Shown: piece after piece, positions 8,199-32,874 of the stretch | Position numbering within the stretch: the stretch's first letter is position 1 | Layout of the letters: each line of letters begins with the position of its first letter | Virus genome (UHGV): UHGV-0132371 | Strand: one strand, 5' to 3' | Source of the DNA: a virus | DNA length: 45,879 nucleotides | Notes under the pieces: generated by a model | Database searches by the model: none | Told to the model about the DNA's origin: nothing | Seen by the model: the letters and a program-made list of their open reading frames with translations, nothing else | Made by a program: the position numbers and the translations under genes

Positions 8199-8762
8199 GT
8201 GGATAAACAACACTGGAAAGTAGAGCGCCAACCTGCATGGCTGGTGGCTGCAATCAAAAGAACTATTGCCGAAATGCCAGGCGGTTATACAGAAGCTGCT
8301 GAATGGCTTGGCCTGTATCGCGCTGGAAAACTCTCAACGGATGCGCTCTACAACAGACTGCGTAACGAAGGAGATCAAATTTTCCCGCTTGAGTGGGCGA
8401 TGGTGCTTCAGGATGCAAGTGGTACTAAGTATGTCACCGATGCGATAGCCCGCCGTAGTGGTGGCGTCTTCGTTCCGCTGGTGGAGGTTGATGATCTTGA
8501 TAACGGCGATATCAACCAGCGCCTGATGGAGTCCATCGAATGGATTGGTAAACACTCGCAGTACCTGCGTAAGGCAACCGCTGACGGGGTTATTGATCCG
8601 GCAGAACGTGAGCAGATTGAAGAGAACAGCTATCAGGTGATGGCTAAGTGGCAGGAACATTTGACGCTGCTTTTCCGTGTGTTTTGTGCGCCGGAAAAAG
8701 GTGACGCCCGCGAGTGTGCAGCTCCGGGCGTCGTGGCAGACAAATCTTGTATGGAGAAGTAA
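8199..8762 (+). CDS. CII-like / YdaT-YmfL-like putative regulatory protein
   Basis: 187 aa directly after the cro-like gene; GTG start with AGGGGA RBS. Family from memory, uncertain. Confidence 0.45.
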   Translation: MDKQHWKVERQPAWLVAAIKRTIAEMPGGYTEAAEWLGLYRAGKLSTDALYNRLRNEGDQIFPLEWAMVLQDASGTKYVTDAIARRSGGVFVPLVEVDDLDNGDINQRLMESIEWIGKHSQYLRKATADGVIDPAEREQIEENSYQVMAKWQEHLTLLFRVFCAPEKGDARECAAPGVVADKSCMEK

Positions 8763-8934
8763 TCCGCATGACCAGTTTAACGGCTTTTAACCGTTTACCG
8801 CAACTCAGGATGATCCCGGTACCGGGCGCTCCGTTGTTTCGGTATGAACGCAGAATAGCAAACCGCTGGGTGCCATGTAACCACAGTCGGGCGGTCGCAA
8901 TTGTGGGGGTTTACTACAGGAAGGCGAAACGCTT

Positions 8935-9108
8935 ATGCGCGAAGTTAACCGAAGGTTCAAAGACCACAGAGGGATCCCCGTTCGGGTTATCCGGTGGGAG
9001 CCTGAAACGCGGCGTGTTATCTACCTGCGAGCAGGGTATGAGCACGAATGCTTCAGCCCACTTGAGCATTTCAGGCAAAAGTTCAGGGAGATAGAGGATG
9101 AGAGCTAA
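8935..9108 (+). CDS. Small hypothetical protein (57 aa)
   Basis: AGGAAGG RBS before the ATG; the alternative frame starting at 8768 is also open but ends in low-complexity sequence. Confidence 0.3.
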   Translation: MREVNRRFKDHRGIPVRVIRWEPETRRVIYLRAGYEHECFSPLEHFRQKFREIEDES

Positions 9109-9136
9109 CCCAATGAAAAAAAACTTAACTGAGAAT

Positions 9137-9538
9137 TTATCCTGCCAGGGCATTAATCCTCAATTTGATAGCCTTTTCTTCAACTTTGAACCTCTTTTTC
9201 AGGTCTTCGAGTTCTTTGGCGAGAGCAATGTATTGATCCGCAACTCCATATTGAGCAATCAGTCCGGTTGCCAGTTTAGCATCGGCGTTTTCTGGATCAT
9301 CAACATCGATGATTTTTCCATATTTTCCGGTAATAACGGCAATACGGTGCTTGCACATCGTGCCCATTTCACCAGCAATGCAAGTGCATTCTATTTCGAG
9401 GTTACCGCTCTGATCGCTGATGGTTACATCGTAAAAACCATCACCGCTGCTGCTGTTAGCCAAAAGTTGGTAGATCACGTTGTATCTCCTTATTTTTTTG
9501 TAGCGGTTAACGCTCATCCCAACCTCATTATTGATCAT
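9137..9538 (-). CDS. SWIM-type zinc-finger protein, opposite strand within the rightward early region
   Basis: C-x-C-x7-C-x-H (ECTCIAGEMGTMCKH) SWIM signature; AT-rich. The start may instead be the internal Met at 9517, which has GAGG upstream. Confidence 0.5.
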   Translation of the reverse strand: MINNEVGMSVNRYKKIRRYNVIYQLLANSSSGDGFYDVTISDQSGNLEIECTCIAGEMGTMCKHRIAVITGKYGKIIDVDDPENADAKLATGLIAQYGVADQYIALAKELEDLKKRFKVEEKAIKLRINALAG

Positions 9539-9620
9539 GCTTTATTCCAGGTATACACTGTCTCGGCAGCGGCAAAATCCGTTGCCGGGATTGGCGTCCT
9601 GGAATTGATTAAAGAGCACA

Positions 9621-9642
9621 ACCGCGCTCTGGCGGTTTTTTT
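9621..9642 (+). terminator. Possible weak intrinsic terminator (tR1-like)
   Basis: Short ACCGC...GCGGT stem followed by TTTTTTT. Confidence 0.3.
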
Positions 9643-9807
9643 GTGCGAAATGCATTGCTACACCCTGATTATGGTGGGGCGTGCAGGGGCATCGAAAGAT
9701 GCGCCGGCTTCTTTAGTCACCGGTTACGCCAACCCTGCACGTCTCACCACCAATGAGATTGGCGTCTCTTGTGGTGAGTTGTTAAAACTGACTAAAGAGG
9801 CAGCCAT

Positions 9808-10354
9808 CATGGCTACGATCCCAACCCTCGTTCAACCTGAAATTTCCGTAATTAACGGTCAGGCCGTTACCTCCTCTCTGGCTATTGCCGACTTCTTCAC
9901 TAAGCGTCACGATGACGTACTGAAAAAAATCCGCGCTCTGGAGTGTTCGCTAGAATTCACTGCCCGCAATTTTGCGGTGAGTGAATACACCGACGCTACA
10001 GGCCGCAAACTTCCCTGCTATCAAATCACCCGCGATGGCTTCGCGTTCCTCGCTATGGGCTTCACTGGTAAGCGAGCAGCACAGTTCAAAGAGGCATACA
10101 TCACAGCCTTCAACAGGATGGAAAATGCGCTTCACGGGGCAAGTGATAATTTCTGCGCAGCGCACAATGCCCACGTTGTTTACCTCTACATGTCTGAAAT
10201 TCACCGCGTCTGGTTAGAACAACTTTATCCGATGTTGGTTTCTGTTCAGTCTCCGCTAGCTTCATCACTCTACGACTACATCAACGATGGTGTATTCGTT
10301 GCTGGGTTGGTGGACTCGGAACTGAACAAAAAGCACAAGGAGGTGCGAAAGTGA
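9808..10354 (+). CDS. Rha-family phage regulatory protein
   Basis: Start at the ATG with AAAGAGG RBS (track ORF artificially extends upstream to 9098); ING..VTSSL.IADFF.KRHDDVLKKI and YQITRDGF.FLAMGFTG.RAA.FK motifs. Confidence 0.6.
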
Positions 10355-11217
10355 GCACTAAATTAACCGGCTACGTATGGGATGGTTGCGCGGCGTCGGG
10401 CATGAAGTTGTCTAGTGTCGCGATCATGGCTCGCCTCGCTGATTTCAGCAGCGATGAGGGCGTGTGCTGGCCGTCCATTGAAACTATTGCTCGCCAGCTT
10501 GGCGCAGGGCCTAGCACGATCAGAACGGCAATCGCAAAGCTTGAAAAAGATGGCTGGCTCACGCGTACACAGCGCCGTAATGGTAACCGTAATGCGTCGA
10601 ACGTGTACCGCCTGAATGTAGCGAAACTTCAGGCTGCCGCATTTTCTCAACTGTCAGATTCTGACACGTCAAAATCTGACGCATCAAAATTTGACGCCTC
10701 AAAAACTGACCCGTCGAAATCCGTCAAAAACGGCGGTTTTGACCCGTCAGAATCTGGCGGGGATCCGTCAGTAAAATCAAAACAAGATCCACAAGTAACT
10801 TCAAAACCCTCTTGTCCGGTTGCTGCGCAACCAGACCCTGAGGTTGTGATTACTGATCAGGCCAGACAGGTCTTGTCTTACCTGAACCAGACAACTGGCT
10901 CACGCTACCAGGTATGCAGTACGTCGCTGGAGAATATTCGCGCCCGTCTTCGGGAACAATTCACGGTTGATGACCTGTGCCTGGTAGTGGATTACAAAAA
11001 TGCCGATTGGCGTGATAGCGAGCAGGCGCAATACCTCCGCCCGGCAACTCTGTTCATTCCAAAAAACTTCCCTGGTTACCTGCAAAGCGCGACCAAATGG
11101 TCCAGTGCTGGCCGGCCTGAACGCGTTAACGGCAAATGGGAGACTAACTCAGCCAGCCGCGCAAACTTCCAGAGTGTTGATTACTCACTGCCAGAAAATT
11201 CGGGGTTCCGTTCATGA
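10351..11217 (+). CDS. Replication initiation protein (N-terminal wHTH, conserved phage C-terminal domain)
   Basis: GTG start with AAGGAGG RBS; O-like position in the operon; iteron array inside the gene. Confidence 0.6.
   Translation: MSTKLTGYVWDGCAASGMKLSSVAIMARLADFSSDEGVCWPSIETIARQLGAGPSTIRTAIAKLEKDGWLTRTQRRNGNRNASNVYRLNVAKLQAAAFSQLSDSDTSKSDASKFDASKTDPSKSVKNGGFDPSESGGDPSVKSKQDPQVTSKPSCPVAAQPDPEVVITDQARQVLSYLNQTTGSRYQVCSTSLENIRARLREQFTVDDLCLVVDYKNADWRDSEQAQYLRPATLFIPKNFPGYLQSATKWSSAGRPERVNGKWETNSASRANFQSVDYSLPENSGFRS
10655..10785. repeat. Iteron array (putative origin of replication) inside the replication gene
   Basis: Six or seven tandem copies of a roughly 14-15 bp unit TGAC(R)CGTCAAAA, encoding the DSDTSKSDASKFDASKTD segment. 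Confidence 0.55.
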
Positions 11218-11441
11218 TGACCAATAAATATTGCCAGGCGCTGGCGGCACTGCGTAGCAAACCAGCTCACGAATTGAAAGAAGTTGGCGATCAGTGGCGG
11301 ACACCGGATCTGCTTTTTTGGGGGATCAACGCGCTATTTGGTCCATTAGTTCTGAACTTGTTCGCAATATGCGGGGAGAGGCCGCGTGAAACTGGTCCTG
11401 CCTTTTCCTCCGAGCGTGAACACTTACTGGCGCGCCCCTAA
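11214..11441 (+). pseudogene. Possible remnant of a phage N6-adenine methyltransferase (Dam-type N-terminus only)
   Basis: 75 aa ORF whose WRTPD.LF...L...FGP segment resembles the start of phage Dam-type methyltransferases, then degenerates and overlaps the rusA start by 56 nt. Confidence 0.3.
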
Positions 11442-11772
11442 CAAGGGGCCGCTGGCCGGTCGTCACCTCATTAGCGCTGATGGTCGTAAATACCAGAGCG
11501 CTGCCTGCGTGGCGATCATTGAGCAATTACGACGTCTCCCGAAGCCATCGACTGAACTGGCAGCGGTAGAAATCACTCTGTACCCGCCGGATGCGCGCCA
11601 TCGGGATATCGATAATTACAACAAAGCCCTGTTTGACGCGCTGACGCATGCGGGTGTCTGGGAAGACGACAGCCAGATTAAGCGCATGCTGGTGGAATGG
11701 GGGCCAGTGGTGCCGAAAGGAAAGGTTGAAATAACGATCAGCATTTACGAACCGGCGGGTGCAGCCGCCTGA
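11386..11772 (+). CDS. rusA: Holliday junction resolvase RusA
   Basis: GTG start with GGGGAGAGG RBS; LPFPPSVNTYW, DIDNYNKALFDALT and EIT. motifs typical of RusA. Confidence 0.8.
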   Translation: MKLVLPFPPSVNTYWRAPNKGPLAGRHLISADGRKYQSAACVAIIEQLRRLPKPSTELAAVEITLYPPDARHRDIDNYNKALFDALTHAGVWEDDSQIKRMLVEWGPVVPKGKVEITISIYEPAGAAA

Positions 11773-13558: not shown

Positions 13559-14251
13559 ATGAATTTACAAGAACTGGAATTTACGCGGATTGAACTGCGC
13601 CGCGCGCTGGCGGATTTATCAGGCTCGACAAAAGGACAGCTGCAGGCGTTCAGTGAGCATCCACCAGCAGATAAGAACAAATACCCCCGGCACCATCCTG
13701 AAATCGTCATGGAGGGTGGGGAAGGTTGTGGATCCAAGGTTGTAAAAACGATGGCCACTCCACTTTATGTTCTTGAGACAAGGAGCCGTCGCCGACCTTT
13801 ACCGCCTATTAAGGATGCGGAGTTCGCTTGTTCAGCATGGCGTCGTTCGGTCAATGGTCTTGGGGAGCATTTGCAGGCATGGGTGCGGTACTGCTATGGG
13901 CATGACCTTGCTTTCCGGTACCAGAGGTTAATGTGCCAGCACGTATGGGAAGAGTTTCAGCGTCAGCATAGCGGCAAAAAAATCCAGGACCGTGTCACTA
14001 AAAAACTGGTAGGGCTTGTCTGGCTGGCGGCGCAAGAAGTTGCTGCCTCGCGTAATAACGATACCTATCAGGAGTATGCTGGTGCAGCTCTGGCGCGCAT
14101 GGTCAGCGTTGAGCGTTCCACCTGGCTCAGAGTGTATTCATGCCACTGGGCGGCTTTCAAAGCGTCGTTTACTGAGATGGACAGCCAGGCACTAAGCGAA
14201 ATTTTGTCACGGTACGAAGAGTACCAAGAACTGAAAGTGGCGGAAATGTGA
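13559..14251 (+). CDS. Q: Late-gene antiterminator Q-like protein
   Basis: Position before the lysis genes; the only ATG start is at 13559 (track begins at a TTG at 13538); family from memory. Confidence 0.55.
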   Translation: MNLQELEFTRIELRRALADLSGSTKGQLQAFSEHPPADKNKYPRHHPEIVMEGGEGCGSKVVKTMATPLYVLETRSRRRPLPPIKDAEFACSAWRRSVNGLGEHLQAWVRYCYGHDLAFRYQRLMCQHVWEEFQRQHSGKKIQDRVTKKLVGLVWLAAQEVAASRNNDTYQEYAGAALARMVSVERSTWLRVYSCHWAAFKASFTEMDSQALSEILSRYEEYQELKVAEM

Positions 14252-14281
14252 GGTAACTTTCACTAACTCCCTCAAATGGGC

Positions 14282-14345
14282 TTGCAAAATGCAACAAAAT
14301 AAGCGATATTTAAAGCTAATTTGATATGTTGCCATGAGTATATAA
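14282..14345 (+). promoter_or_regulatory. Candidate late promoter (PR'-like) and qut region
   Basis: TTGCAA then about 17 nt then GATATT downstream of Q, followed about 50 nt later by a terminator, as in lambda PR'/6S RNA. Confidence 0.35.
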
Positions 14346-14368
14346 ACCCGCCAGCGAGCGGGTTTTTC
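14346..14368 (+). terminator. Rho-independent terminator (tR'-like)
   Basis: ACCCGC-CAGCGA-GCGGGT hairpin followed by TTTTT. Confidence 0.55.
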
Positions 14369-14576
14369 ATTTTCACGTACTAAGTGGATGGGATTACCCG
14401 GCGACCATAACAACATAAAAAGATACTGTTTATACATTCATAGGAATTTGTTGTTAAGCTGCACTTACAACAAAAAAAGTCAAGAAATCTCCGAGAAACA
14501 CCACTAATCTGTGCAAAAAAGATTGCATATAACGTATGTTCAGACCATATTTAGCGCATAACTAAAGCAATCTTGA

Positions 14577-14597
14577 CCTCCACTTGGGAGGTTTTTT
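14577..14597 (+). terminator. Rho-independent terminator
   Basis: CCTCC-ACTTG-GGAGG hairpin followed by TTTTTT. Confidence 0.55.
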
Positions 14598-14679
14598 CGT
14601 ATCTATCCCTTAGTGAAATCTACATGTTGTGTGCCGAAGTTGTTTTTTTACTACATGTAGTTTGTTGGAGAGCGCAGCC

Positions 14680-14889
14680 ATGAACATAAACCAGCTTTAT
14701 GACGATTTTGGTATCACCCCCGCAGAATTTTTGCCAAACGAAACAGCAACTGATTTTGGTCGCAGAGTAATGAGTACCTCATCAGTTGGTTCTGGGCAAA
14801 AAGGTGTGATTTATTCGACAGGTTCTCACCTGGAAAATGTTGATTACAATCAACAAGGAAATGCATCGTACCAACTGTATTCATACTAA
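14680..14889 (+). CDS. Small hypothetical protein (69 aa), first gene of the cargo cassette
   Basis: GGAGAG RBS before the ATG (track ORF begins earlier at 14629); AT-rich. Confidence 0.4.
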   Translation: MNINQLYDDFGITPAEFLPNETATDFGRRVMSTSSVGSGQKGVIYSTGSHLENVDYNQQGNASYQLYSY

Positions 14890-14903
14890 CAATAAGATGA
14901 ACA

Positions 14904-15803
14904 ATGCCTAATTGGAATCATGTTATGGGCGAGGTTGCAGTCCTCGCCCAAAAAAGCCCCCTAGACACAGTAAGAAGCAAATATATCAAAGAGATGTCGC
15001 AGATGACCGGACGTAACGTCATTGCGTACTACTCGGGGTTCCTTCAGAATAGCTCGCATTTATGTACTATGTCTGATGATGATAAAAATGGATTCATGAC
15101 AGCGGTTCATGGGCTCGATGCCACGAAGGGGCTTGATCTCATTTTGCATACACCTGGTGGGGATATCGCCGCCTTAGAATCGATAGGTTATTACTTGAGA
15201 GCTAAGTTCGGTAACGATATCCGTGCTTTTGTCCCCATGATATCTATGTCAGCAGGGACTATGTTGGCTTGTTGTGCAAAAGAAATCATCATGGGGAAAC
15301 AATCAAATATCGGTCCTTTCGATCCCCAAATAGGTGGCGTGCCAGCACATGGCGTGATTGAAGAAGCGCAGAAGGCTATGCAAGATATTATTAAAAACCC
15401 TGCGACTGCTGCGTATTGGCAATTTACACTGTCTAAACTCAATCCGACGTTCATTGGTGAGTGTGAAAAGGCAATCCAATGGGCAACAACAATTGTCAGT
15501 GAATGGCTAATTACTGGTATGTTTGATGGGGATCCAGATGCCCAGCAAAAGGCTGAAGCTATTTGTTCAAGCCTGAATAACCACAGTTCAACTTTTGCTC
15601 ATGCACGTCATATTCACAGTGATAAAGCTAGCCAAATTGGTTTGAAAATCATACCGATGGAAGCAGATCAGGCATTACAAGATATTGTGTTAACGATACA
15701 TCATAGCTATATGCACACTTTTGGTGGCAGTACAGCAGCCAAGATTATCGAGAACCATGAGGATGGCCGAAGAGTCTGGCATGTCCCTCCTGGAAACGCG
15801 TAA
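14904..15803 (+). CDS. S49/SDH-family ClpP-fold serine peptidase (second copy besides gpC)
   Basis: 299 aa with LILHTPGGDI and MISMSAGTMLACCA motifs typical of ClpP/SppA-fold peptidases; AT-rich; bracketed by terminators. Confidence 0.6.
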   Translation: MPNWNHVMGEVAVLAQKSPLDTVRSKYIKEMSQMTGRNVIAYYSGFLQNSSHLCTMSDDDKNGFMTAVHGLDATKGLDLILHTPGGDIAALESIGYYLRAKFGNDIRAFVPMISMSAGTMLACCAKEIIMGKQSNIGPFDPQIGGVPAHGVIEEAQKAMQDIIKNPATAAYWQFTLSKLNPTFIGECEKAIQWATTIVSEWLITGMFDGDPDAQQKAEAICSSLNNHSSTFAHARHIHSDKASQIGLKIIPMEADQALQDIVLTIHHSYMHTFGGSTAAKIIENHEDGRRVWHVPPGNA

Positions 15804-15824
15804 ATTTCAGATTTTATTAAAAAT

Positions 15825-15852
15825 GCCCTGACCTGAAAATCAGGGCTTTTTT
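15825..15852 (+). terminator. Rho-independent terminator
   Basis: GCCCTGA...TCAGGGC hairpin followed by TTTTTT. Confidence 0.6.
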
Positions 15853-16021
15853 ACGCCTTCGTTCCTTCAATATGGAGGAGTTTTGCTGTGGAATGGGCGG
15901 CTGGTGGGTGTTGTAGCACCCGACCAACCATCAGCTCATGCTTACAGGTCACAAGCTAACCAAGGCCCATTGCTTTAGCGCAAAAGCAAAGAGAGCCTAT
16001 CAGAGTTACGCTTATTGATCT

Positions 16022-17074
16022 ATGAAAAATACTGTAAATATAAACAGTGTTGAGTTAGTCAACGCTGATAGCCTGCAATACATCGCCACTCTCCCTGATA
16101 ACTCCATTGACCTGATAGTCACGGATCCGCCGTACTTCAAAGTGAAACCAAACGGCTGGGACAACCAATGGAAAGGGGATGATGATTATCTTCGATGGCT
16201 TGATATGTACCTCGCACAATTCTGGCGAGTGCTTAAACCTGCCGGCAGTCTTTATCTTTTCTCCGGTCACCGCCTGTCGGCAGACATTGAGATCATGATG
16301 CGTGAGCGGTTCAACGTCCTGAACCACATCATCTGGGCTAAACCGTCTGGCCGCTGGAATGGCTGTAATAAAGAGAGCCTTCGCTCTTACTTCCCTGCAA
16401 CAGAGCGCATCCTGTTCGCTGAGCATTACCAGGGGCCGTATAAACCAAAGAGCGACGGGTACGCTGAGAAGGGAAGCGAGCTGAAGCAGCATGTAATGAC
16501 TCCCCTAATTTCTTATTTCCGGGATGCACGTGAAGCGCTTGGCATATCCTCAAAACAAATAGCCGATGCGACTGGAAAGAAGAACATGGTGTCTCACTGG
16601 TTCAGCGGTAGCCAGTGGCAATTACCGAATGAATCCGACTACCGGAAACTTCAATCCCTTTTCACGCAGGTAGCCATCGAAAAGCACCAGAACGGCGAAC
16701 TGGCAACACCACACCACCAGCTGGTGGCCCTGTGGCATTCGTTAAATCGCAAGTATTCAGAGCTGCTCGAAGAGTACAAATCGCTTCGGCGGCATTTCTC
16801 TGTTTCCGTATCCGTTCCTTATACCGACGTCTGGACACATAAACCCGTTCAGTTTTACCCAGGTAAACACCCATGCGAAAAACCCGCTGACATGTTGCGG
16901 CAGATCATCAACGCCAGCAGTAAGCCTGGTGATGTGGTGGCTGATTTCTTTATGGGGTCCGGTTCGACCGTGAAAATCGCGCTGGAACTTGGCCGCCAGG
17001 CTATCGGCGTTGAACTCGAGGAAGACAGGTTTAGCCAGACGGTGGAGGAAATAAGGGCGTTAACAGGGGAGTAA
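16022..17074 (+). CDS. Orphan DNA methyltransferase (beta-class N6-adenine/N4-cytosine; DPPY before FxGxG)
   Basis: 350 aa with TDPPY near the N-terminus and DFFMGSGST near the C-terminus; no adjacent restriction endonuclease. Confidence 0.8.
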   Translation: MKNTVNINSVELVNADSLQYIATLPDNSIDLIVTDPPYFKVKPNGWDNQWKGDDDYLRWLDMYLAQFWRVLKPAGSLYLFSGHRLSADIEIMMRERFNVLNHIIWAKPSGRWNGCNKESLRSYFPATERILFAEHYQGPYKPKSDGYAEKGSELKQHVMTPLISYFRDAREALGISSKQIADATGKKNMVSHWFSGSQWQLPNESDYRKLQSLFTQVAIEKHQNGELATPHHQLVALWHSLNRKYSELLEEYKSLRRHFSVSVSVPYTDVWTHKPVQFYPGKHPCEKPADMLRQIINASSKPGDVVADFFMGSGSTVKIALELGRQAIGVELEEDRFSQTVEEIRALTGE

Positions 17075-24282: not shown

Positions 24283-25600
24283 TCTCCCGCACATTGCCAG
24301 TATGGCCTTCAATGAGCCGCTTTTACTTGAACCCGCCTATGCGCGGGTTTTCTTTTGTGCTCTCGCTGGTCAGTTAGGTATCACCCGTCTGACCGACACC
24401 GTGTCGGGCGTGACGCTAGGTGCAGAGCAGATGGCTGAACCGCTGGCTCTCTTTGGTGATGATGAGGACATGGGCCCAAAACCAGCGCGAAGCTACCAGG
24501 TTACTGATGGTATCGCGGTGCTGCCTGTTTCCGGGACGCTGGTCAGTAAAACCCGCTCACTCCAGCCGTATTCGGGGATGACGGGGTACAACGGCATCAT
24601 CGCCCGCCTCCAGCAGGCAATCAGCGATCCGGGTGTAGACGGCATTCTTCTGGATATGGATACGCCAGGTGGAATGGTGGCGGGTGCCTTTGACTGTGCG
24701 GACATCATCGCCCGCATGCGGGATATCAAACCCATCTGGGCGTTAGCCAACGATATGAACTGCAGCGCTGGCCAGCTGATTGCCAGTGCGGCATCACGTC
24801 GGCTTGTGACCCAGACGGCCAGAACGGGATCCATCGGGGTCATGATGGCCCACAGCAATTACGGCGCCGCCCTTAAAACCAGCGGCGTTGAGGTCACGCT
24901 GATTTACAGCGGCGATCACAAGGTGGACGGGAACCCCTACGAGAAATTACCCAAAGAGGTACGCGCAGATTTTCAGGCGCGTATCGACGCTACCCGGCAG
25001 ATGTTCGCTGAAAAGGTGGCGGGTTATACCGGCATGTCGGTTCAGGCCGTTCTTGATACTGAAGCAGCTGTGTTTTCAGGCCAGGAATCAGTTGACAACG
25101 GCCTGGCGGAGCAGCTGGTCAACAACATGGATGCGCTGAACGTTATGCGCGATGCAATTAACAAACGAACGATGATTTCCCGAGGAGGAAGCATGAAAGG
25201 TACTACTGCATCCGCAGATACCACTCAACCAGCAGCATCTGCTGACCAGACCGTGACCACCGTTGACGTGCCTGTTGCGGTCGTTACTGACCCTGCAGCG
25301 GGCGCAACTGTTGATATCAGCAGCCAGGTGGCAGCGGCGGTCGCAGCCGAAAACGGTCGCATTATGGGGATCCTGAACTGTGAAGAGGCGAAAGGGCGTG
25401 AATCACAGGCGCGCGCGCTGGCGGAAACGCCCGGGATGACGGTGGAAAGTGCCCAGCGCATCCTTGCCGCGGCTCCTCTGAGTGCTCAGGCGCGTACGGA
25501 TACCGCGCTGGATCGTCTGATGGAAACCGCACCCGGCACCATAACGGCAGGTAGCGCTTCTGCCGAAGCGGGTGACGATTTGTTAAATACGCCTGTTTAA
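24263..25600 (+). CDS. C: Prohead protease/scaffold gpC (S49 family); a Nu3-like scaffold is probably encoded in-frame in its 3' part
   Basis: Close to lambda C; start at the ATG with GAGGAGGGG RBS. Confidence 0.85.
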   Translation: MTPELRNLPHIASMAFNEPLLLEPAYARVFFCALAGQLGITRLTDTVSGVTLGAEQMAEPLALFGDDEDMGPKPARSYQVTDGIAVLPVSGTLVSKTRSLQPYSGMTGYNGIIARLQQAISDPGVDGILLDMDTPGGMVAGAFDCADIIARMRDIKPIWALANDMNCSAGQLIASAASRRLVTQTARTGSIGVMMAHSNYGAALKTSGVEVTLIYSGDHKVDGNPYEKLPKEVRADFQARIDATRQMFAEKVAGYTGMSVQAVLDTEAAVFSGQESVDNGLAEQLVNNMDALNVMRDAINKRTMISRGGSMKGTTASADTTQPAASADQTVTTVDVPVAVVTDPAAGATVDISSQVAAAVAAENGRIMGILNCEEAKGRESQARALAETPGMTVESAQRILAAAPLSAQARTDTALDRLMETAPGTITAGSASAEAGDDLLNTPV

Positions 25601-30059: not shown

Positions 30060-30380
30060 ATGAAACTGGCGCGTGAGTTCGGTCGCCCGGACTGGCGTGC
30101 CATGCTTGCTGGCATGTCCTCAACGGAATACGGCGACTGGAAAATCTTCTACCAGGACAATTACTTTCATGATGCGCAGCTGGACGCACATTTCTCCGGC
30201 TTGCTCTACACCATCTCAACCCTGTTTTTTGCCGATCCGGAGTTAACCCCGGACAGTTTCAGCATTCTTTCCTCTGCACCGGAAGACATCGACATCGATG
30301 ATCCGGATGACGATACGCTGATGGCGAAGGCTGCAGGTATTTCAGGAGGCGTGCGCTATGGCCCAGACGGCAGTCGGTGA
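30060..30380 (+). CDS. T: Tail assembly protein gpT, probably made as a G-T fusion by -1 frameshift
   Basis: Resembles lambda T; its frame is open upstream from about 30015 and is the -1 frame relative to G. Confidence 0.7.
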   Translation: MKLAREFGRPDWRAMLAGMSSTEYGDWKIFYQDNYFHDAQLDAHFSGLLYTISTLFFADPELTPDSFSILSSAPEDIDIDDPDDDTLMAKAAGISGGVRYGPDGSR

Positions 30381-32874
30381 TCTGGTCGTTAACCTTGACG
30401 TTAACTCGACAAAATTCAACGAGCAGCTCAGCTACGTCAAAAAAGAATTAAAACAGACCGGCAATACGGCAAACGATGAAGCGTTACGTATCCAGCAGTC
30501 CTTCAGCCGCCAGGAGAACGCCGCGCGTAAGGCCGGTATTTCAGTGGGTCAGTATAACGCAGCGATGCGTATGCTCCCGGCGCAGTTTACTGACGTGGCC
30601 ACGCAGCTGGCGGGTGGGCAGAACCCCTGGCTGATTCTGCTTCAGCAGGGCGGTCAGGTTAAGGACTCCTTTGGCGGGATCATTCCGACATTCCGGGCGT
30701 TACTGGGGACGATTTCCCCGTTGATGGTCGGCATTGGTGCATTGTCCGTTGCAACGGGCGCGTTGTTCTATGCCTGGTACCATGGCTCTTCCACTCTGTC
30801 TGATTTCAACAAAACGCTGGTACTGTCGGGGAACACAGCCGGACTGACAGCTGACCGCATGCTGGCACTGGCGCGGAACGGACAGGCAGCGGGGCTAACG
30901 TTCAACCAGACCAGTGAAGCCCTGACCGAGCTTATCAATGCAGGTGTGCGTACTGGCTCGCGCTTTGATGAAATGAGCCAGGCGGTGGCGCGGTTTACTG
31001 ATGCCTCCGGCGTGCCGGTGGAGAAAGTCGCTGCAGCCTACGGCAAGCTCGCAACTGACCCGACATCGGGCCTGATCGCGATGGCCCAGCAGTTCCATAA
31101 CGTTACCGCAGAACAGATTGCCCATGTGGCGCAGCTGCAGCGTGCCGGTGATGAGGCTGGCGCACTGCAGGCGGCTAACGAGGCGGCTACAGCCGGATTC
31201 AACGATCAGACCAAAGCCATCCGCGACAATATGGGGACGATAGAGTCTTCAGCGGACTCCCTGAAGCGCGCCTTCAAGTCGATGTGGGATGCAGCCCTCG
31301 ATATTGGCCGACCTGACACCGCGCAGGAGATGGTGGCAAAAGCCGAAGCCGCGTTCAAAAAAGCTGATGAAATCTGGAACCTGCGTAAAGGTGACCGATA
31401 TGTCAATGATGAGGCTCGCGCCCGATTCTGGAATGACCGCGAAACGGCCAGGCTTGCGCTGGATATGGCGCAGCAGCAGGCGGGAATTGCCAGGGCGAAC
31501 GAAGAGAATGTATCGCGCGAAGCGGCTGCGGAATCGGATCGCCAGAAGTATGCTGCGCAGGCACAGGCAAACTATGCCAAAACGCAGACGGCACTGGAGA
31601 AATACACGGCCAGGCAGAGCGAGCTCAACAAGGCGCTGAAAGAGGGGCGGATCCTCCAGGCTGACTACAACATCAACCTGGCTGCCGCGAAAAAAGAGTA
31701 CGAAGACACCCTTAAAAAGCCGAAGAAGACCCCGGCAATCAGAACCCCCGCAGGTGCCCGTGCCACCGATACGGCCAGTGCCCAGACGCTGGAGCTACAG
31801 ACACAGCTGCGCACCCTGCAGGAGCATAAGAGCATCAATGACACCATCAGCCAGCAGCGTCAGGAGCTGTGGCGTCAGCAGTCCCGCTTTACGGTTCTGG
31901 AAGAGGCCGCGAAGACCCGAACGCTTTCTGCTGAGGAAAAATCCCTGCTGGCCAGTAAAAGTGAGGTGCTTTCCCGTGCGGAGCTGAATGCGAAGCTCGG
32001 CGATCAGATAGTGGCGCAGGAGCGGCTTAATCGCCTGCAGGATACGTCCCAAAAATACGTCACGCAGATCGGCGAGAAAACCCGAGCCCTTGCGGAAAGT
32101 GCTGGTATGAGCAGTCGTGCAGCACAACGTCGCAATGAAGAGGCCCAGCTTCTTCAGGGCTGGAAAAATGGTGGTGGTTCGAAGAACGATGCTGGTTATC
32201 AGAATGAGCTGCAGGCGCTGCAGGCGTATTACGCCGAGCAGAATAAGCTGCGGGACGACTGGCAGTCCGGAGCCAAATCCGCATGGGCAGATTATGTTGA
32301 TTCTGCTTCAGATGCTTTTGGCCAGATGAAGTCGGCTGCCACCAGTGCGTTTGATGGCATCGGGCAAAATATGGCTGACATGCTGACGCGCGGAAAGGCT
32401 GACTGGGCTGACTTCACCCGCTCCACGCTCTCCATGCTGACACAGATCCTGCTGAAACAGGCGATGGTAGGCCTGGTGGATTCAGCGACAACCGCGCTGG
32501 GATTTGCAGGTGGCGGTTATACCGGTTCAGGCGGGAAATATGAACCTGCAGGTGTCGTTCACCGTGGTGAATTTGTTTTCACCAAAGAGGCTACCAGCCG
32601 GATCGGCGTCGGCAATCTTTACCGGATGATGAAAGGGTATGCCACGGGTGGGTATGTCGGGGGCGGTGGTACAGGCCCGGCTGCAGCACCTTTCGGTGTC
32701 AGTGTATATGCCCCGGTGACGGTCGAGAATGCTTCCGGTAACGCACAGCAGCAAAACGACGGAGACAGGCTGGGTAAGGCGTATCAGCAGGTGATTAACA
32801 AATCTGTCAACGATGGTATCGCCAGGGCAATCCAGCCCGGTGGGCTTATCTGGAATGCGACCAATCGCAGGTAA
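30358..32874 (+). CDS. H: Tail tape measure protein gpH
   Basis: 838 aa, similar to lambda H across its length. Confidence 0.9.
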   Translation: MAQTAVGDLVVNLDVNSTKFNEQLSYVKKELKQTGNTANDEALRIQQSFSRQENAARKAGISVGQYNAAMRMLPAQFTDVATQLAGGQNPWLILLQQGGQVKDSFGGIIPTFRALLGTISPLMVGIGALSVATGALFYAWYHGSSTLSDFNKTLVLSGNTAGLTADRMLALARNGQAAGLTFNQTSEALTELINAGVRTGSRFDEMSQAVARFTDASGVPVEKVAAAYGKLATDPTSGLIAMAQQFHNVTAEQIAHVAQLQRAGDEAGALQAANEAATAGFNDQTKAIRDNMGTIESSADSLKRAFKSMWDAALDIGRPDTAQEMVAKAEAAFKKADEIWNLRKGDRYVNDEARARFWNDRETARLALDMAQQQAGIARANEENVSREAAAESDRQKYAAQAQANYAKTQTALEKYTARQSELNKALKEGRILQADYNINLAAAKKEYEDTLKKPKKTPAIRTPAGARATDTASAQTLELQTQLRTLQEHKSINDTISQQRQELWRQQSRFTVLEEAAKTRTLSAEEKSLLASKSEVLSRAELNAKLGDQIVAQERLNRLQDTSQKYVTQIGEKTRALAESAGMSSRAAQRRNEEAQLLQGWKNGGGSKNDAGYQNELQALQAYYAEQNKLRDDWQSGAKSAWADYVDSASDAFGQMKSAATSAFDGIGQNMADMLTRGKADWADFTRSTLSMLTQILLKQAMVGLVDSATTALGFAGGGYTGSGGKYEPAGVVHRGEFVFTKEATSRIGVGNLYRMMKGYATGGYVGGGGTGPAAAPFGVSVYAPVTVENASGNAQQQNDGDRLGKAYQQVINKSVNDGIARAIQPGGLIWNATNRR

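Follow-up and report, generated by a model that had tools for sequence, protein, structure and literature searches.

We analyzed a two-gene cassette in the UHGV virus genome UHGV-0132371, a stretch of 45,879 nucleotides (nt) that is referred to here, at its full length, as the window. The window represents a lambdoid/myovirus-type Escherichia coli prophage and shares 99.6% identity across the region with yejO-adjoining prophages of three complete genomes. As a first-pass annotation of the DNA had described, two open reading frames (ORFs) lie on the plus strand between a tR'-like terminator and a DNA methyltransferase gene. They encode a small protein of 69 amino acids (aa; 14680-14889) and a predicted ClpP-fold serine protease of 299 aa (14904-15803). 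We regard the cassette as a moron and, with a probability of about 0.6, as a two-protein cytoplasmic module that protects its lysogen against infection by other phages, through superinfection exclusion or abortive infection.

The protease and its small partner

The 299-aa protein was compared with profile, family, and structure databases. It scored 66.6 bits against PF01972 (SDH_protease), above the cut-off of 31.3 bits (E = 2.4e-18). The alignment covers only residues 56-164, corresponding to profile positions 73-180 of 286, and thus marks the protein as a divergent member. The score with the NCBIfam equivalog model NF047768 (Clp_like_SDH) was 85.7 bits, below the cut-off of 250, indicating a relative rather than an equivalog. 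The RefSeq label of the protein is "SDH family Clp fold serine proteinase," and it matched PHROG 11747 (E = 1e-106), a family of unknown function. A sequence search of the PDB with the protease found no relative. The AlphaFold 2 (AF2) model, with a predicted local distance difference test (pLDDT) score of 89, showed the ClpP/crotonase fold, and the top fold matches of this predicted structure were ClpP, SppA, NfeD, and "serine dehydrogenase proteinases" of giant viruses, with SppA ranked below ClpP. The SppA model TIGR00706 gave 11.9 bits against a cut-off of 155.45 (E = 0.13), and the head-maturation model NF045542 gave 22.5 bits against 120. The protein had initially been called an S49/ClpP-fold protease. 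Fold matches and motifs bear out the ClpP fold, whereas "S49" proved imprecise for an SDH-type member of PF01972.

Catalytic motifs were recognized by profile alignment. The oxyanion-loop motif LHTPGG (residues 81-86) aligned with INSPGG of ClpP and with MDTPGG of the phage's own S49 protease, and MSAGTM, which contains Ser116, aligned with CSAGQL of the same S49 protease. Residues H82, T83, P84, G85, G86, S116, and G118 were invariant in 36 of 36 homologs. Because LHTPGG and MSAGTM align with ClpP and S49 motifs, Ser116 is the likely, though putative, nucleophile. The first-pass annotation had allowed for an absence of catalytic residues from such an alignment; this does not apply here, since profile and fold comparison found the serine motif in place. 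Other serine peptidases of the ClpP/crotonase fold, namely ClpP (S14), SppA and lambda gpC (S49), and NfeD 1510-N, are only 12-17% identical to the cassette protease. Relative to ClpP, SppA, and NfeD, the cassette protease has an extra C-terminal helical domain of ~120 residues, missing in ClpP, which holds five invariant His residues (H233, H236, H266, H267, and H271). It has no His at the position equivalent to His122 of ClpP and no conserved Lys at the base position of SppA and NfeD; therefore, the catalytic partner residues may differ. Candidates for the general base are D140, K132 (Arg in one sequence), and the five invariant His residues. Unlike ClpP, the protease has no partner ATPase encoded with it.

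The start codon of the protease gene was reassigned. In an identical prophage, the Prokaryotic Genome Annotation Pipeline (PGAP) places the start at 14925 (Met8). The N-terminal sequence MPNW is conserved in >30 homologs, and because of this conservation, the true start is judged to be 14904.

The small partner protein begins with ATG, with GGAG 9 nt upstream. It matched PHROG 25714 (E = 3e-13), a family of unknown function, and had no Pfam match. Nearly all loci examined have a small ORF, homologous or analogous to this one, directly 5' of the protease gene, co-oriented with it and separated by a gap of 3-55 nt. In the AF2 model of the small protein, helices were predicted at residues 3-9 and 23-33, and residues 34-69 were modeled with low confidence and predicted to be disordered; no recognizable DNA-binding fold was found in the protein. 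Enterobacterial members, whose C-terminus reads QLY[ST]Y, keep Y45-S46 and the final L66-Y67-x-Y69 without exception. A strand-like motif, h-x-h-Y-S-[ST], recurs in the partner proteins of Gordonia (VRYSTSAT) and Porphyromonas (LYDYSGYETHTT) phages. An exact 9-nt direct repeat, GATTTTGGT, located at 14704-14712 and 14752-14760, encodes both D-F-G motifs of the small protein and may represent an internal duplication in the ORF.

Both genes are under purifying selection, with ratios of nonsynonymous (dN) to synonymous (dS) substitution rates of 0.03-0.04 for the protease and 0.15-0.19 for the small ORF. The dN of the small protein was 2-3 times that of the protease. A faster-evolving small protein beside a conserved enzyme is typical of a variable sensor or inhibitor with a conserved effector. 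No obvious signal peptide or membrane segment was seen by eye in either protein, and both look cytoplasmic.

The cargo slot and the spread of the gene pair

The cassette lies downstream of a DUF968 gene and the gene for the Q antiterminator, which ends at 14251. The left edge of the cargo slot is the tR'-like intrinsic terminator on the plus strand (14344-14373), which consists of a hairpin formed by AAACCCGC/GCGGGTTT (stem at 14344-14365) and a T-run and ends the short late-promoter transcript. The methyltransferase gene (16022-17074) follows the cargo region. Beyond it are holin, lysozyme, and Rz-like genes, terminase, portal, an S49 head protease (24374-25240; annotated at 30075-30941 in locus L001), and the decoration and capsid genes. 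The phage therefore already has a prohead protease in its head module, as had been pointed out.

The limits of the insert were determined by comparison with the ECONIH5 sister prophage. Identity between the two prophages is near-complete up to ~14375 and returns from ~15873, so that the whole variable insert spans 14376-15872 on the plus strand (~1.5 kb). The ECONIH5 slot holds ~0.7 kb of unrelated DNA with a reverse-strand ORF of 159 aa and no cassette. The unit had originally been delimited as 14577-15852; it is indeed present there but extends further and includes a conserved promoter-leader-terminator block. The description of the unit as AT-rich and bracketed by terminators was accurate. 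The G+C content is 0.37-0.46 over 14150-16100, compared with 0.50-0.59 in the flanks, and hairpins are located at 14344-14365, 14575-14593, and 15825-15846. A terminator scan detected 10 terminator-like sites in 14100-16200, compared with 1.6 +/- 1.2 in shuffled sequences. The exact insert was present in only 3 of 5426 complete E. coli genomes and some homolog of it in 80 (~1.5%). The majority of related prophages keep the methyltransferase gene and lack the cassette. Because the insert is polymorphic among sister prophages and the exact unit is rare in E. coli genomes, the Q-to-methyltransferase slot is a true cargo hotspot, in agreement with the hotspot proposed between Q and the lysis genes. 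The cassette thus shows two properties of a moron, presence or absence between homologous phages and deviating composition. Separately, the 159-aa ORF of ECONIH5 (locus L002, 6074-6553) had no PADLOC match and is another candidate cargo gene of this slot.

We also surveyed the neighborhoods of homologous cassettes. The gene pair recurs, in the same order, in the cargo slots of many temperate phages, whose hosts belong to Proteobacteria, Bacteroidota, and Actinobacteria. The family is large, with 7,997 of 8,000 scored candidates at E <= 1e-5. The pair occupies the slot from antiterminator to holin in Enterobacter and E. coli prophages with three different replication/antiterminator modules. The Q-to-methyltransferase slot is also used in a prophage of E. 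coli Nissle 1917 (locus L020, 7605-8723), in which the protease is ~63% and the small protein ~35% identical to those of the window. Cassettes were found between the lysis and terminase genes, one of them adjoining bor. In Mu-like Aeromonas and Shewanella phages, the stretch from Mor/C to the lysis genes holds the pair. In Shewanella, a cassette lies directly 3' of a cI-like repressor gene; the position directly after cI is occupied by rexAB in lambda. On the opposite strand, the pair adjoins the integrase gene in Pseudomonas prophages and islands and stands behind the tail fibers in Proteus prophages with four different chromosomal flanks. In Methylomonas, an integrative element ends with the cassette, Gordonia phage BeeGee has it in its central region, and Porphyromonas phages have it behind HicAB.

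Defense genes were found near some cassettes. In P. fluorescens, a small integrase island is shared with AriA/AriB (PARIS; locus L110, 9684-11874), and the cassette of a Mu-like Aeromonas prophage has a TIR-TM gene at a distance of 1 kb (locus L018, 3784-4578). None of the homologs was in a head module in >25 distinct contexts, and no copy borne on a phage-inducible chromosomal island (PICI) was found among short viral contigs and E. coli genomes; each context examined was a prophage or an integrase island. The survey thus returned cargo slots only, and the concern that homologs might prove to be routine protease genes of head modules does not apply. The common denominator of these contexts is the classical moron slot, and several of the slots are lysogen-expressed. 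These results show that the pair travels whole from one cargo hotspot to another and does so among unrelated temperate phages across several phyla.

The control region upstream of the genes

A candidate cassette promoter was located on the plus strand at 14512-14551, with a -35 element TTGCAT (14523-14528), a 17-nt spacer, and a -10 element CATATT (14546-14551). This prediction is based on conservation: the candidate aligns with the strong TTGTCA-18-TATAGT promoter of related cassettes and is conserved in type-A cassettes. A small inverted repeat, TGCAA-N6-TTGCA (14512-14527), overlaps the candidate -35 element. Downstream on the same strand are a leader of ~40 nt and an intrinsic terminator, both upstream of the two genes (14552-14599; stem at 14575-14593, T-run to 14599). 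The terminator hairpin is retained in other cassettes, with a lineage-specific stem sequence. The block ATATTTAGC.CATAACTAAAGCAATCTTGACCTCC...GGAGGTTTTTTCGTATCT is near-invariant in type-A cassettes despite saturated dS of the protease gene, and the segment 14546-14605, comprising the -10 element, the leader, and the terminator, is the most conserved DNA of the cassette. The leader region matched no Rfam family and gave sub-threshold terminator-like hits only. A search of the cassette and the lysis region for a trans target of the leader RNA found none better than those of shuffled leaders.

Two quasi-palindromic boxes that form an inverted repeat were found by repeat search at 14620-14663 (plus strand), with CTACATGTTGTGTG at 14620-14633 and CTACATGTAGTTTG at 14651-14664. 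The exact arms are CTACATGT (14620-14627) and ACATGTAG (14653-14660), 19 nt before the start codon, and the second box, CTACATGTAG, is a perfect palindrome on its own. Across 20 homologous cassettes, 83% of cells were paired, compared with 15-54% in slid controls. The central pair showed compensatory changes (AU in 7, CG in 4, and GC in 3), and the covariation score was reached by 0 of 500 shuffles. Exact arms of 8-14 bp at a fixed 19-24 nt from the ATG were observed in many lineages. The box hairpin appeared in both the minimum free energy (MFE) and the centroid folds. The folding energy from leader to start was unexceptional in the window (z = -0.10), so that the claims for RNA structure are those of the comparison between cassettes. 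The inverted repeat may act as a DNA operator or as an RNA hairpin. It had been noticed earlier, at 14614-14658, as flanking a promoter of the cassette. The repeat is real and conserved, although these coordinates were slightly off, and a candidate promoter does exist as a prediction; the repeat does not flank it but sits between the leader terminator and the ribosome-binding site. The possibility that the inverted repeat itself contains a second promoter was rejected, as no conserved hexamer pair at a workable spacing was found.

Gammaproteobacterial cassettes share one layout in every slot, comprising a sigma-70-type promoter, a leader of ~40-50 nt, a terminator hairpin, the two boxes, and a ribosome-binding site. 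The promoter is TTGTCA-18-TATAGT in many copies and the weaker TTGCAT-17-CATATT in the window. The identical upstream layout is also present in cassettes outside late operons. At the other end, the cassette is closed by a bidirectional intrinsic terminator (15825-15852, both strands) formed by GCCCTGA...TCAGGGC, with the stem at 15825-15846 and a T-run on each strand. A terminator ~20 nt past the protease stop codon was present in 39 of 42 unique downstream regions when the protease was at least ~60% identical, and in 41 of 69 overall, with differing sequences. The conserved upstream layout and the predicted terminator of its own support the cassette as an autonomous unit.

ECONIH5 shares the late-promoter region of the phage (14252-14375) in conserved form, including the short transcript that ends at the tR'-like terminator. 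The cassette repeats this layout of promoter, short RNA, and terminator ~200 nt downstream of the phage's own copy. In several related cassettes (loci L011, L027, L036, L037, L074, and L075), perfect DnaA-box-like nonamers (TGTGGATAA / TTATCCACA) lie in or beside the cassette promoter; the window has the DnaA-box-like TGTGCAAAA, an 8/9 match, within 14510-14528.

Functional interpretation

A function of phage against phage is suggested by the cytoplasmic look of both proteins, the spread across phyla, the moron slots, the neighboring defense genes, and the combination of a fast partner with a conserved enzyme. A further property of morons is a promoter and a terminator of their own. In the cassette, the terminator is clear and present in nearly all closer relatives, and the promoter is predicted from conservation and is weak in the window copy.

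Several observations weigh against a defense module. The promoter candidate of the window is a weak consensus match (7/12) and was absent from the output of a generic promoter scan, and the protease has no conserved His or Lys at the general-base positions expected from ClpP, SppA, or NfeD. Neither protein had a match in PADLOC-DB v2, and PHROGs lists both families under "unknown function." No database consulted links the family to defense, and a full-text literature search covering PF01972 and SDH-type proteases, ClpP-like proteases together with anti-phage function, and the Nissle loci found no such link. The lambdoid and Mu-like copies are co-oriented with the late operon; high expression in the lytic cycle is therefore expected, and this would fit a lytic-cycle function as well.

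If the cassette defends the lysogen, it would be transcribed there from its own weak promoter (14523-14551), and most transcripts would stop at the leader terminator (14575-14599), leaving a trickle of bicistronic mRNA. The small protein may bind the protease through its disordered tail (h-x-h-Y-S-[ST]; QLY[ST]Y in enterobacterial members) and thereby inhibit it, like a pseudo-substrate or an antitoxin, or else serve as its adaptor or sensor. On infection by another phage, the protease would be released or redirected to degrade phage or host proteins, and the infection would be stopped. Given the late-operon position, Q-modified polymerase would also have to read through the cassette during lytic growth of the prophage itself. 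The role of the small protein and the targets of the protease in this model are purely inferred.

The closest known counterpart may be FS_HP_SDH_sah, as the system is named in DefenseFinder, a two-gene PICI system of a hypothetical protein and SDH_sah that Fillol-Salom and colleagues reportedly validated as anti-phage in Cell in 2022. SDH_sah is the former name of PF01972. We take the cassette to be a probable member of this system; the system name is absent from searchable literature text, which also counts against a defense role, and we know of no published mechanism. As the system is described, the two are alike in having two genes, a hypothetical protein and a PF01972 protein, in a cargo hotspot of a phage-related enterobacterial element. 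They differ in that this element is a PICI there and the late-operon slot of a prophage here. Tail assembly inhibition (Tai) of PICIs was also considered and set aside as unrelated; its paper mentions no protease.

The cassette also resembles the lambdoid morons (bor, lom, rexAB/sieB, and stx after Q), which are optional units with deviant composition in the same slots, with a predicted promoter and a terminator. It differs from them in encoding a cytoplasmic protease pair and in the unusual promoter-leader-terminator element before the genes. Lit of the e14 prophage cleaves EF-Tu on sensing the Gol peptide of T4. Lit and the CHAT/caspase-like effectors may be analogous in idea, as prophage-borne proteases that are inactive until a phage cue, but their class and fold differ, being metallo- or cysteine proteases rather than a ClpP-fold serine protease as in the cassette.

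Other functions were weighed against defense. The main rival, itself unlikely, is a lytic-cycle accessory: the protease would be made late under Q antitermination and would degrade host defense proteins, regulators, or envelope or lysis-timing factors, with the small protein as its adaptor. It is the main rival because Q-modified polymerase must transcribe the cassette on its way to the lysis and head genes, and eight lambdoid or Mu-like contexts have the cassette within the late operon, pointing the same way and beside the lysis genes. One related prophage that carries the cassette also has an anti-defense gene in the same general region, just past the lysis genes, encoding an Acb2/Tad1-hairpin domain of the anti-CBASS/Thoeris sponge family (locus L008, 9573-9917). 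However, cassettes with the same upstream layout also occur outside late operons and on the opposite strand, by int, after cI, or behind tail fibers. Terminator bracketing and a predicted own promoter would be superfluous for a simple late gene, and sister phages without the cassette indicate that it is dispensable. We give less credence to an addiction module that stabilizes the prophage without a dedicated anti-phage role, in which the protease would be a toxin and the small protein a labile antitoxin that represses through the boxes. The architecture resembles that of type II toxin-antitoxin (TA) systems and TA-like abortive infection in the small gene placed first with its short gap, in the predicted folded N-terminus and disordered tail, in the faster evolution of the small protein, and in the palindromic boxes upstream of the operon; HicAB moreover adjoins the cassette in Porphyromonas phages. 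This resemblance is architectural only. Searches with either protein found no known toxin or antitoxin family, the effector is of the ClpP-fold protease type, the boxes lie clear of the predicted promoter, and the small protein lacks a recognizable DNA-binding fold. The idea also overlaps with that of a defense module, as many TA-like modules are defense systems.

A lysogenic-conversion factor that alters host physiology or virulence, for example by degrading a host regulator, with phage competition irrelevant, is very improbable. The cassette does occupy slots of bor, stx, and other conversion genes and has been found in E. coli of clinical and probiotic origin, Nissle 1917 among them. Against this stand its hosts and their lifestyles, which are so diverse (Methylomonas, Shewanella, Gordonia, Porphyromonas, and soil Pseudomonas) as to point to a target common to phage infection, and the cytoplasmic appearance of both proteins. 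Duplicated capsid maturation by a second prohead or scaffold protease is effectively refuted. A weak likeness exists (NF045542 at 22.5 bits; PHROG 53 at E = 1.4e-5), and the SPGG and SAG motifs are common to the cassette protease and the phage's own S49 protease. However, the head-maturation score is far under its cut-off, none of the homologs lies in a head module, the phage has a head protease already, sister phages do without the cassette, and the predicted structure most resembles cellular ClpP and the SDH proteinases of giant viruses, not prohead proteases. The capsid reading was accordingly excluded on the hidden Markov model (HMM) scores below cut-offs, the location between Q and lysis, and the separate S49 head protease, which upholds the initial view that this peptidase does not serve capsid maturation. 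The label "S49 family peptidase" on some such prophage genes should likewise not be taken to mean a capsid protease.

A more elaborate arrangement, which we consider unlikely, is a three-part switch in which the leader RNA and terminator, together with the covarying hairpin or operator, gate expression, while the protease is closed by the small protein, a pseudo-substrate "plug." The pair would be made in quantity only once an infecting phage made transcription terminator-resistant or otherwise disturbed it, an N- or Q-type antiterminator being one possible agent. The Y-S-[ST] strand would fill the active-site groove of an ATP-independent ClpP-fold protease until a phage cue removed it. If so, phage defense would gain both a novel way of sensing, by antitermination, and a novel class of effector.

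If the cassette is a defense system, as we favor, it would be among the few built on a ClpP-fold serine protease. Members of the family occur in ~1.5% of complete E. coli genomes, among them that of the probiotic Nissle 1917, and the phages that carry them span at least three phyla. The gene pair is widespread and already catalogued. Experimental handles are provided by the corrected start codon, Ser116, the Y-S-[ST] motif of the partner protein, which extends from Gordonia to E. coli, and the conserved promoter-leader-terminator-hairpin region.

The prophage carries three DNA methyltransferase genes, at 8508-9842, 9835-11772, and 16022-17074, encoding N6-adenine, cytosine-5, and type-II-like orphan enzymes. 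The type-II-like orphan (16022-17074) scored 485 bits on the PADLOC model MTase_II. The three are probably anti-restriction cargo.

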